From the IMG/VR virus record IMGVR_UViG_3300027693_000002: a DNA stretch of 64,000 nt. One strand, 5' to 3'. The notes beneath the pieces were generated by a model. It was given only the letters and a program-made list of their open reading frames with translations. It was not told the origin of the DNA and did no database searches. Both the position numbers and the translations under genes were made by a program. This document shows positions 61,565-61,936 of the stretch, one piece after another (the first letter of the stretch is position 1; the number at the start of each line of letters is the position of its first letter). The stretch is from a virus.

Positions 61565-61584
61565 GGAAAGGAAAGGAAAGGAAA
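61565..61584. repeat. (GGAAA)4 microsatellite
   Basis: read directly, ~80 nt upstream of cas12-like start codon. Confidence 0.8.
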
Positions 61585-61597
61585 GGAGCGCTCTGCT

Positions 61598-61619
61598 GTC
61601 CCAACGAATTGGGCAATCA
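61598..61619 (-). repeat. orphan partial CRISPR repeat (first 22 nt of array repeat) in the 5' region of the cas12-like gene
   Basis: GTCCCAACGAATTGGGCAATCA identical to repeat 5' half; same orientation as array. Confidence 0.8.
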
Positions 61620-61621
61620 GA

Positions 61622-61936
61622 TCACCGACTCCCGTGGTTGTATCGACTCCGCCTGGACGTCTCAACAACCACGGGAGTCAGAGTTGACTCAAACCTGCGG
61701 ACCACTACCTGACCCACCAATACATTGATACCCCAAGCCTCATCTGGATACTGTTCTATCAAGTAGGCAATGATACTAGGAACCACTATCTTCCAGTCGC
61801 TTGAGGCATCCCTAAGGCGGGCCAAAGCCTCCTTGTTGGAATAGAGCTTGGAGGTTGATAGACTGAACCCGGATGTGAAAATCCCAACAACTCGATCCTC
61901 AACAACTCGAACCTGGATCTGAATCAAATCACCCAT
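61622..61936 (-). CDS. hypothetical protein
   Basis: ORF track 104 aa; last 19 codons coincide with hairpin, so the 3' end is doubtful. Confidence 0.3.
   Translation of the reverse strand: MGDLIQIQVRVVEDRVVGIFTSGFSLSTSKLYSNKEALARLRDASSDWKIVVPSIIAYLIEQYPDEAWGINVLVGQVVVRRFESTLTPVVVETSRRSRYNHGSR
61627..61679. other. perfect 14-bp-stem hairpin GACTCCCGTGGTTG-n25-CAACCACGGGAGTC immediately beyond orphan repeat
   Basis: inverted repeat read directly; overlaps 3' end of ORF 61622..61936. Confidence 0.6.

Follow-up and report, generated by a model that had tools for sequence, protein, structure and literature searches.

Organization of the type V-J locus

A compact type V-J CRISPR-Cas module lies on the minus strand at the right end of a 64-kb stretch of phage DNA, IMG/VR virus record IMGVR_UViG_3300027693_000002. 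This whole stretch of 64,000 nt is referred to below as the window; all coordinates are those of the window unless another locus is named, and the minus strand is the CRISPR RNA (crRNA) strand. In addition to the gene for the effector, Cas12j (CasΦ), and a CRISPR array, the module contains a solitary copy of the handle half of the repeat, located upstream of cas12j. This element is best read as a solitary repeat unit (SRU) of a phage V-J system, a kind of unit already known from cas12a. The three components are as follows.

59107-61488, minus strand: cas12j (CasΦ) effector gene, 793 aa, with its ATG at 61488-61486 and a match to PDB 7lys
58743-59074, minus strand: CRISPR array with five repeats of 37 nt, separated by four spacers of 35-40 nt, each repeat scoring 32.8 bits with a covariance model
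61598-61619, minus strand: solitary handle-only repeat unit (pseudo-repeat, ΨR), an exact match to the five array repeats that is also recovered by the handle model R1

A preliminary description of the locus, made from the sequence alone, had called the effector Cas12-like, and this assignment can be narrowed to Cas12j. The 793-aa protein matches CasΦ-2 (7lys) with an E value of 5.4e-140 across residues 19-784, i.e., over its whole length, Cas12j3 with an E value of 4.4e-134, and Cas12j-SF05 with an E value of 2.8e-128, and thus has the size (700-800 aa) and the end-to-end CasΦ homology of type V-J effectors. The Pfam match of cas12j, to the Cas12f1-like TNB domain, is weak, and a scan against Rfam gave a single sub-threshold match, inside the cas12j coding sequence and at chance level. 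Cas12j needs no trans-activating crRNA (tracrRNA), and the effector itself processes the precursor of crRNA (pre-crRNA), according to the literature on Cas12j1 and Cas12j2 (PMC8298400; PMC12141684). No anti-repeat was found when both strands of the window were searched.

The array begins 32 nt past the cas12j stop codon, and no promoter-like site is present in the gap; with so short a distance, co-transcription of the array with cas12j is plausible. The 37-nt repeat, GTCCCAACGAATTGGGCAATCAAAAAGGATTGGATCC, is read on the minus strand as GGATCCAATCCTTTTTGATTGCCCAATTCGTTGGGAC, and the 3' 22 nt of the minus-strand reading comprise an ATTG motif and a terminal AC, together with a 5-bp stem that closes a 4-nt loop. 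The CCCAA/TTGGG stem-loop falls within these spacer-proximal 22 nt, a layout common to 12 other Cas12j repeats. The array therefore has the features of type V-J arrays, namely, repeats of ~36 nt, a 3' ATTG-stem-loop-AC handle, and location on the strand of the effector. When 13 Cas12j repeats from unrelated loci were aligned, 100% of the cells in the handle stem were paired, and four of the five pairs had changed on both sides. R1, a 26-nt covariance model of Cas12j handles built from this alignment, recovers every array repeat across ~30 Cas12j loci. The spacers of the array have no self-match in the window.

A solitary handle upstream of cas12j

The window contains six perfect copies (0 mismatches) of the half-repeat GTCCCAACGAATTGGGCAATCA. 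Five of them belong to the array (58743, 58816, 58888, 58965, and 59038), and the sixth is the orphan at 61598-61619, 2.5 kb from the array, between cas12j and the stop codon of the next upstream open reading frame (ORF), ORF104. From 100 shuffles, no match to GTCCCAACGAATTGGGCAATCA is expected even with 3 mismatches allowed. On the minus strand the orphan reads TGATTGCCCAATTCGTTGGGAC, the 3' 22 nt of the repeat with its 5-bp stem and 4-nt loop, and is a direct copy of the repeat on the strand of the array. R1 scores it at 27.6 bits (E = 0.002), making it the sole additional handle in 64 kb; the other R1 match, at position 3162 (E = 6.4), is noise. A single unit with a 22-bp exact match thus lies outside the array in its own locus, where a repeat match of at least 16 bp defines an SRU.

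The main observation of the preliminary description is borne out by these results. It had reported an exact copy of the first 22 nt of the repeat, in the orientation of the array and comprising the spacer-proximal stem-loop handle, about 110 nt upstream of the effector start; the match is 22/22, the distance from the handle end (61598) to the cas12j ATG (61488-61486) is 109 nt, and the copy is exactly the part that R1 recognizes. The alternative offered at the time, a degenerate second array, is not supported, as R1 detects nothing else resembling a handle, either close to the orphan or in the rest of the window. Three other contigs (L001, L022, and L023; one from a Logan run and two from other JGI metagenomes) agree with the region at every base, which rules out an assembly artefact. 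No match to the handle was found in IMG/VR viral contigs.

The extent of the copy corresponds to the part of the repeat that the effector holds. In Cas12j3, the protein contacts the handle as far as nt -18 (PMC8298400), and an active CasΦ-2 ribonucleoprotein can be reconstituted with 25 nt of repeat plus a spacer (PMC9942878), so that the 22 nt retained here would be the part bound by Cas12j.

A transcript of the opposite strand over 61598-61619 would pair with the repeat handle and could act as an anti-repeat or antisense RNA, either tracrRNA-like or as a sponge for crRNA handles. This explanation is extremely improbable. A tracrRNA locus carries an inverted copy of the repeat with its own promoter; the orphan is a direct copy and therefore not a tracrRNA, the best plus-strand promoter candidate (6.7) is below the window median, with none above background, and Cas12j has no need of a tracrRNA (PMC8298400; PMC12141684).

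The pseudo-spacer and its potential as a guide

The sequence that follows the handle, in the position of a spacer, is composite.

61585-61597, minus strand: unique start of the pseudo-spacer (ΨS), AGCAGAGCGCTCC, 13 nt, defined from the sequence
61563-61587, minus strand: perfect pentanucleotide microsatellite, called by Tandem Repeats Finder as (AAGGA)5 on the plus strand with period 5, 5.0 copies, and 100% matches
61538-61564, minus strand: candidate promoter P_down, TTGACT (61564-61559), 15-nt spacer, TAGGAT (61543-61538), scoring 10.3 with a position weight matrix (PWM)

The preliminary description had equated the pseudo-spacer with (TTTCC)4. The tract is present, at 61584-61565 on the minus strand [(GGAAA)4 at 61565-61584 on the plus strand], but it is preceded by the 13 unique nt of AGCAGAGCGCTCC; read as a guide, the pseudo-spacer is AGCAGAGCGCTCCTTTCC, opening with AGCAGAGCGC... 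An 8-bp palindrome, GAGCGCTC, is located at 61586-61593, at the start of the pseudo-spacer. The microsatellite is the only one with a pentamer unit that Tandem Repeats Finder detected in the window, and its copy number (four to five copies) is the same in four assemblies. As RNA, the (TTTCC)4 tract is G-free and predicted to be unstructured, with a z score of +0.66 for the fold of 61520-61600. Mimicry of an anti-Shine-Dalgarno sequence by CUCCUUUCC was considered and rejected as unlikely, because the phage barely uses Shine-Dalgarno sequences (33% of genes versus 22% background) and cas12j has none.

The last two bases of the microsatellite are the first two of the TTGACT hexamer of P_down, and the ATG follows ~70 nt beyond. 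Roughly 5% of 350-nt windows on the minus strand reach the PWM score of P_down; the site is absent from a stricter consensus scan. A second 8-bp palindrome, TTGTACAA (61548-61555), occupies the P_down spacer between the candidate -35 and -10 hexamers, and either this palindrome or GAGCGCTC could be an operator for a dimeric regulator.

The preliminary description had proposed that the element gives rise to a crRNA-like guide with which the effector represses its own promoter, and it had suggested a search for complementarity of the pseudo-spacer near that promoter. Such autorepression is known from CreR of MbCas12a, from its phage mimics, the Cracr RNAs, and from viral and host V-A elements that have a single ΨR; in these, at least ~9-10 PAM-proximal nt match a site in the cas promoter that is flanked by a protospacer-adjacent motif (PAM) (10.1101/2023.03.10.532045; 10.1101/2024.10.29.618823). 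The PAM of CasΦ enzymes is TBN/TTN (PMC9942878; PMC8298400). In the corresponding model for this locus, a crRNA-like RNA would guide Cas12j to bind, without cutting, a PAM-flanked site in the cas12j promoter. The architecture resembles that of the type V-A CreR and Cracr loci, with a single ΨR and ΨS upstream of the effector (10.1101/2023.03.10.532045; 10.1101/2024.10.29.618823), the ΨR consists of the mature handle nucleotides (22/22), and the ΨS ends directly at TTGACT, the best -35 candidate for cas12j.

The complementarity on which this model depends is nevertheless absent. Across the whole 64-kb window, the best seed matches of the ΨS are 8 nt long (at 53225, 41450, and 37383), which is chance level, and these sites are tens of kilobases away in PAM contexts that are not T-rich (CCCA, ACCG, and CCCA, respectively). 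Within 61300-62700, the best local match is 10-11 of 16 nt, the same as in the distribution for shuffled guides, so that no match near the cas12j promoter exceeds those of shuffled guides and the required run of at least ~9 PAM-proximal nt is missing. The DNA of the pseudo-spacer itself is flanked by GAC from the repeat instead of a TBN/TTN PAM. Furthermore, R1 identified no second degenerate repeat (ΨR2), and neither a rho-independent terminator after the ΨS nor any other terminator-like site was called between 61490 and 61597. With no ΨS match above chance in the sequence searched, the defining feature of the CreR family is lacking, and a CreR-type autorepressor is improbable. There is likewise no support for a lone handle that steers the nuclease to the promoter; an RNA-level binding site on the transcript of the nuclease gene itself is more likely.

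Handle-only units in other Cas12j loci

Approximately 30 Cas12j loci were collected and scanned with R1 and with the handle of each locus. Close relatives of the window effector were not among them: all other Cas12j proteins are ≤40% identical to it, except for one 451-aa fragment at 49%, and a scan of IMG/VR with the single protein gave no match. Handle-only copies outside arrays are frequent across these loci and are often tied to the 5' end of cas12j. By our tally, handles on the same strand lie on the cas12j start or no more than ~300 nt upstream of it in 6 of ~23 non-redundant loci (the window, L002, L006, L007, L014, and L038), i.e., in five of the ~22 loci other than the window, and they are ~10-fold denser near the cas12j start than in the flanking kilobases.

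Locus L002, on a 412-kb contig, has seven handle-only units at 2087-7323, one in each intergenic gap around cas12j. The units share ~22 nt and have no conserved 5' repeat half, and no canonical array is present within the 10 kb covered. In the unit 61 nt before the cas12j ATG, the stem carries a compensatory change from CTCAG/CTGAG to CTCGG/CCGAG relative to the six others, and a strong sigma-70-like promoter (TTGACA-17-TACTAT; PWM score, 14.8) ends 6 nt ahead of this handle. Genes for tRNA-Cys and tRNA-Ser (3717-3881) are directly upstream of this promoter. One of the L002 units matches the cas12j coding sequence at 4217 with a seed of 12 nt.

A similar promoter (TTGACT-16-TACAAT; PWM score, 14.5) ends 7 nt ahead of the first of five handle-only units in L006, an IMG/VR phage contig. 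With promoters that end 6-7 nt before a handle, the transcripts of L002 and L006 would start at the handle and continue into cas12j. The L006 units occupy 2646-2873, in the cas12j leader, and their targets lie at 1840-2582. All five spacers match the adjacent ORF249, over 11 (+6), 17, 33, 27, and 14 PAM-proximal nt, in the PAM contexts TCG, TCA, TCA, TTC, and CCT, four of which are of the TBN type; two of the guides are perfect over their full length. The five units thus form a self-targeting mini-array, possible purposes of which are regulation, exclusion of competitors, or homing. The 249-aa product of ORF249 has no match in Pfam or PHROG.

In two loci, handles adjoin the cas12j coding sequence or fall within it. 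L038, the protein of which is reported on 11 contigs, has two tandem handles directly upstream of cas12j (2951-2999); they are 6 nt apart, leaving no room for a guide between them. The second L038 handle, with a single mismatch in its stem, stops 1 nt short of the ATG, and the translation start thereby takes the place of the spacer. In L014, a handle-like hairpin is formed by cas12j codons 5-12 (2977-3002). In addition, the middle of L014 cas12j contains an in-frame insertion of a complete 36-nt repeat (4047-4083), flanked by a 14-nt duplication, ACGGGGGATCC(C/A)GT; the insertion adds 16 codons in the conserved FTGDPVIDP region.

The arrangement varies further among the remaining loci. The entire array of L007 is upstream of cas12j and co-directional with it, and handles upstream of cas12j are divergently oriented in L012 and L037 (both ~2908-2951, minus strand) and in L015 (2839-2901, minus strand). 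Other solitary handles were found in L013 (3254-3279, versus 3481-3628), L008 (466-491), L015 (6449-6474 and 7338-7363), and L033 (1157, 6270, and, on the minus strand, 2449). Some of these further handles are located between cas12j and the array, at times with a 5' repeat half that differs from that of the array, and some are past the array.

Some handle-only units therefore encode guides, as in L006; the units of the window, L002, L038, and L014 show no target. The window element might likewise be a guide unit, ordinary or regulatory, with a target for AGCAGAGCGCUCCUUUCC... outside the visible sequence: in a host gene, in a competing phage, or in the ~38 kb of the phage contig beyond the window. 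A self-regulatory target, as in L006, would also fall under this reading. That handle-only units can carry real guides is evident from ORF249 (five of five units), the L002 unit with a 12-nt seed match inside cas12j points in the same direction, and the protein cluster of the effector is reported on a 102-kb contig, of which the window covers 64 kb. However, the window contains no match, even in the upstream 2.4 kb that correspond to the location of the L006 targets, and an 18-mer of the ΨS had no match in IMG/VR viral contigs. Among 185,579 GTDB reference genomes, this 18-mer has eight exact matches, in scattered taxa and none extending past 18 nt, compared with ~17 expected by chance by our estimate. 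Furthermore, positions 14-33 of the pseudo-spacer are microsatellite, unlike a target-derived spacer. An unseen target is therefore an unlikely explanation of the element.

Sequences flanking the handle and the array

Upstream of the handle, three further features are located on the minus strand.

61622-61936, minus strand: ORF104, directly upstream, an ORFan from the ORF list with coding-like codon usage
61627-61679, minus strand: perfect 15-bp hairpin with a 23-nt loop (61627-61641 paired with 61665-61679), from a stem scan
61637-61665, minus strand: candidate promoter P_up, TTGAGA (61665-61660), 17-nt spacer, TACAAC (61642-61637), PWM score 9.0

The ORF104 stop codon, TGA (61624-61622), is 2 nt ahead of the handle. 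In-frame codon usage in ORF104 amounts to 0.22 bits per codon, equal to that in cas12j; no homologues besides ORF104 itself were found, and Pfam and PHROG gave no match. P_up is contained within the hairpin (loop and 3' arm), with its -10 hexamer ending 17 nt ahead of the handle, and its score is far below those of the handle-proximal promoters of L002 (14.8) and L006 (14.5).

A perfect hairpin preceding the orphan had been noted in the preliminary description, and it is present; its stem is 15 bp and not 14 bp, however, and it is inside ORF104, within the last ~19 codons, and not intergenic. The window contains 18 perfect hairpins with stems of 11-23 bp, compared with 0 in 10 shuffles, and most of them are on or just after the 3' ends of genes. 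Examples are found at 12779-12839, 41523-41559, 51655-51694, 5070-5107, and 17380-17410; the one at 12779 is alone in being flanked by A/T runs, like a bidirectional terminator. The 15-bp hairpin is thus probably the usual gene-end structure of this phage and not a specific part of the element. It was rejected as an intrinsic terminator: the stem is followed by GGTGATCTGATT, with no U-tract, and none was called at 61627-61679. An 8-bp inverted repeat that brackets the element, TGAGTCAA/TTGACTCA (61557-61564 and 61685-61692), was also discarded, being compatible with chance at such spacing.

Further upstream, ORF210 (61924-62556, minus strand) contains two internal repeats of a Cys/His motif, ...IRYHV..GH....CSTCE... 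and ...IRTHV..RH....CVECN.... The match to zf-C2H2_2 is weak and sub-threshold, and PHROG gave no match. The ORF210 product could be a nucleic-acid-binding protein co-transcribed with cas12j.

A perfect 9-bp hairpin at 61480-61501 on the minus strand, GCTGCTCAT-cgtt-ATGAGCAGC, includes the cas12j start codon in its 3' arm. The fold has a z score of -3.0, and equal stability was reached in 2 of 200 shuffles. No Shine-Dalgarno sequence is present upstream of cas12j, and the start-codon hairpin may damp translation of the nuclease.

At the opposite end of the module, the terminal repeat of the array adjoins a 5'-truncated ORF for an ABC-transporter ATPase (58227-58779). The ABC homology sets in at the Q-loop, a point that coincides exactly with the repeat boundary (58742), whereas the part with Walker A is missing; the array therefore seems to replace the 5' end of the gene, and the last "spacer" of the array appears to be the ABC gene itself. 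Beyond the array, on the side opposite cas12j, is a 63-nt direct repeat, the two copies of which (57405-57467 and 58215-58277) are 79% identical and 810 nt apart. Both copies contain a palindrome, ATCGAGGAC...GTCCTCGAT.

The orphan and the array constitute direct repeats that flank cas12j, and this geometry would also arise if a recombination or insertion event had put cas12j in or beside an array, leaving the orphan as a non-functional repeat remnant that is retained because the event was recent. Illegitimate joining at repeats in this locus is shown by the junction between the array end and the truncated ABC-ATPase ORF at a repeat boundary, and SRUs beside cas12a have been discussed as recombination remnants (10.1101/2023.03.03.530964). 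Moreover, as the four assemblies show no variation, selection on the element is not demonstrable in this phage. Against such an origin, the copy is truncated at the boundary of the functional handle and is 22/22 identical to the array repeats. Distant lineages repeatedly have units that share this boundary, with dedicated promoters (L002 and L006) and a compensatory stem change (L002), and in L038 and L014 their positions are tied to the cas12j start codon. The probability of a relic is low, on a par with that of an unseen target.

A putative Cas12j-binding site in the cas12j transcript

The reading preferred here, to which we assign a probability of roughly 45%, is that the element is a solitary handle-only crRNA unit that probably serves as a Cas12j binding and processing site in the cas12j transcript. 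The handle with its ΨS, cas12j, and the array would form one transcription unit, [handle-ΨS]-cas12j-[array], in which transcription of the handle would depend either on the weak P_up or on read-through from an operon of ORF210 and ORF104. The handle would be bound by Cas12j, which would probably cut just 5' of it, as in pre-crRNA. Such a cut, immediately past the stop codon and 3' hairpin of ORF104, would part a hairpin-capped upstream mRNA from the cas12j mRNA, and Cas12j would stay attached to the 5' end of the mRNA that encodes it. The abundance of Cas12j would thereby be coupled to its own transcript, and the unit would compete with array crRNAs for the protein; the resulting feedback could be either repression or stabilization. 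The unit would thus act at the RNA level and not as a DNA-targeting guide for the cas12j promoter.

Several observations favor this reading. The ORF104 stop codon and the 15-bp gene-end hairpin are immediately 5' of the predicted processing site, the identity of 22/22 has its boundary at the functional handle, and the test for a DNA guide was negative. Selection of such units as Cas12j-binding RNA elements is suggested by their recurrence at the heads of cas12j transcripts in distant lineages, by promoters that would start transcription at the handle, by the compensatory substitution in the L002 stem, and by the L038 handles, which have no room for a guide.

Other observations weigh against it. 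The promoter calls in the window are weak (P_up, 9.0), and P_down (10.3), the best sigma-70-like candidate, is downstream of the handle, so that mRNA initiated there would lack the handle. At 109 nt from the ATG, the handle is too far away to block the ribosome site directly, as the L038 and L014 arrangements suggest for those loci. Pairing of the ΨS with the cas12j transcript, including the translation start, or with the array transcript is not above that of shuffled ΨS; for the cas12j translation start and transcript, the best energy is -29.0 kcal/mol, compared with -26.9 to -37.1 kcal/mol for shuffles. The relatives are not orthologous loci, and the recurrence is therefore analogy and not conservation, and the identity of the four assemblies of the phage leaves no covariation to draw on. 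In addition, according to one paper, Cas12j cuts pre-crRNA in the upstream spacer and not inside the repeat (PMC12141684). Finally, the model does not account for the (TTTCC)4 tract.

A more general proposal, that the Cas12j nucleases of huge phages regulate themselves at the RNA level through handles placed in the leader, on the start codon, or in the coding sequence, is doubtful. The nuclease would bind and/or cut its own message through the recognition and processing that it applies to pre-crRNA; as a common explanation of the arrangements in the window, L002, L006, L038, and L014, this is conceivable, although the odds are against it. In some phages, such units would serve in addition as operon punctuation (L002) or as carriers of self-targeting guides (L006). 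RNA-level self-regulation is suggested mainly by the gene arrangements of the relatives and to a lesser degree by the window itself.

Comparison with known systems

Feedback of a repeat-derived RNA on effector expression has a precedent in type II systems. According to Workman et al. (2021), the long-form tracrRNA (tracr-L) is reportedly a natural single guide that autorepresses Cas9 through 11 nt of complementarity to promoter DNA. The window element resembles tracr-L in being a non-canonical, repeat-derived RNA element beside the effector gene, where tracr-L feeds back on effector expression. It differs in that Cas12j is without a tracrRNA and in that promoter complementarity is not seen here.

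Autogenous control by RNA binding has precedents in phages: the MS2 coat protein at the replicase operator and T4 RegA and gp32 bind a hairpin in or near a translation start and limit translation. The arrangement of handles in L038 and L014 is comparable, with Cas12j and its own mRNA as the partners. The analogy fits these relatives more closely than the window, where 109 nt separate the handle from the ATG. No autogenous translational operator is known for any Cas12.

RNA anti-CRISPRs (Racrs), described by Camara-Wilpert et al. in 2023 (PMC10651486), are likewise solitary repeat units in phage genomes that are expected to be bound by Cas proteins without guiding interference. Racrs mimic the CRISPR repeats of the host and disable the host system, whereas the window unit copies the repeat of the phage's own array in the phage's own cas locus and for this reason is not a Racr.

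The crRNA-like RNAs (crlRNAs) CreR and Cracr share more of the architecture. Their ΨR contains the nucleotides of the mature 5' handle (20 nt for MbCas12a and 22 nt here), is followed by a ΨS, and is located upstream of the effector promoter, and some V-A examples have a single ΨR. Unlike the window element, they have ~9-10 or more PAM-proximal nt that match a TTTA-flanked site in the cas12a promoter, often with a terminator after the ΨS.

The closest counterparts are the SRUs of type V-A loci (Shmakov et al.), which adjoin cas12a in roughly a third to a half of these loci, mostly upstream, and have no targeting pattern (10.1101/2023.03.03.530964 / PMC10120712). As in the window, they are standalone repeat-like units of at least 16 bp outside the array, usually upstream of the effector and with no second repeat, and the adjacent sequence has no recognizable targeting pattern. 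The roles proposed for them, as effector-binding small RNAs or as recombination remnants, are those considered here. No description of SRUs for type V-J, and none of Cas12j in the crlRNA literature, was found in the searchable literature. The present unit differs in being phage encoded, in belonging to type V-J, and in being cut to the exact mature handle; moreover, handles on the start codon or within the coding sequence, as in the Cas12j relatives, are not reported for type V-A.

The main value of the analysis is this comparative pattern across Cas12j loci. SRUs upstream of cas12a are common and show no targeting pattern, and Cas12j loci give the question of their function a testable form: retention of the handle alone, at a transcription start, on a start codon, or inside a coding sequence, points to an effector that recognizes its own mRNA. 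If this reading is wrong, the element is an ordinary by-product of repeat recombination. If it is correct, it would be relevant to compact CasΦ editors, e.g., for self-limiting expression cassettes, and RNA-level feedback would take its place beside the known DNA-level autorepression by CreR and tracr-L.

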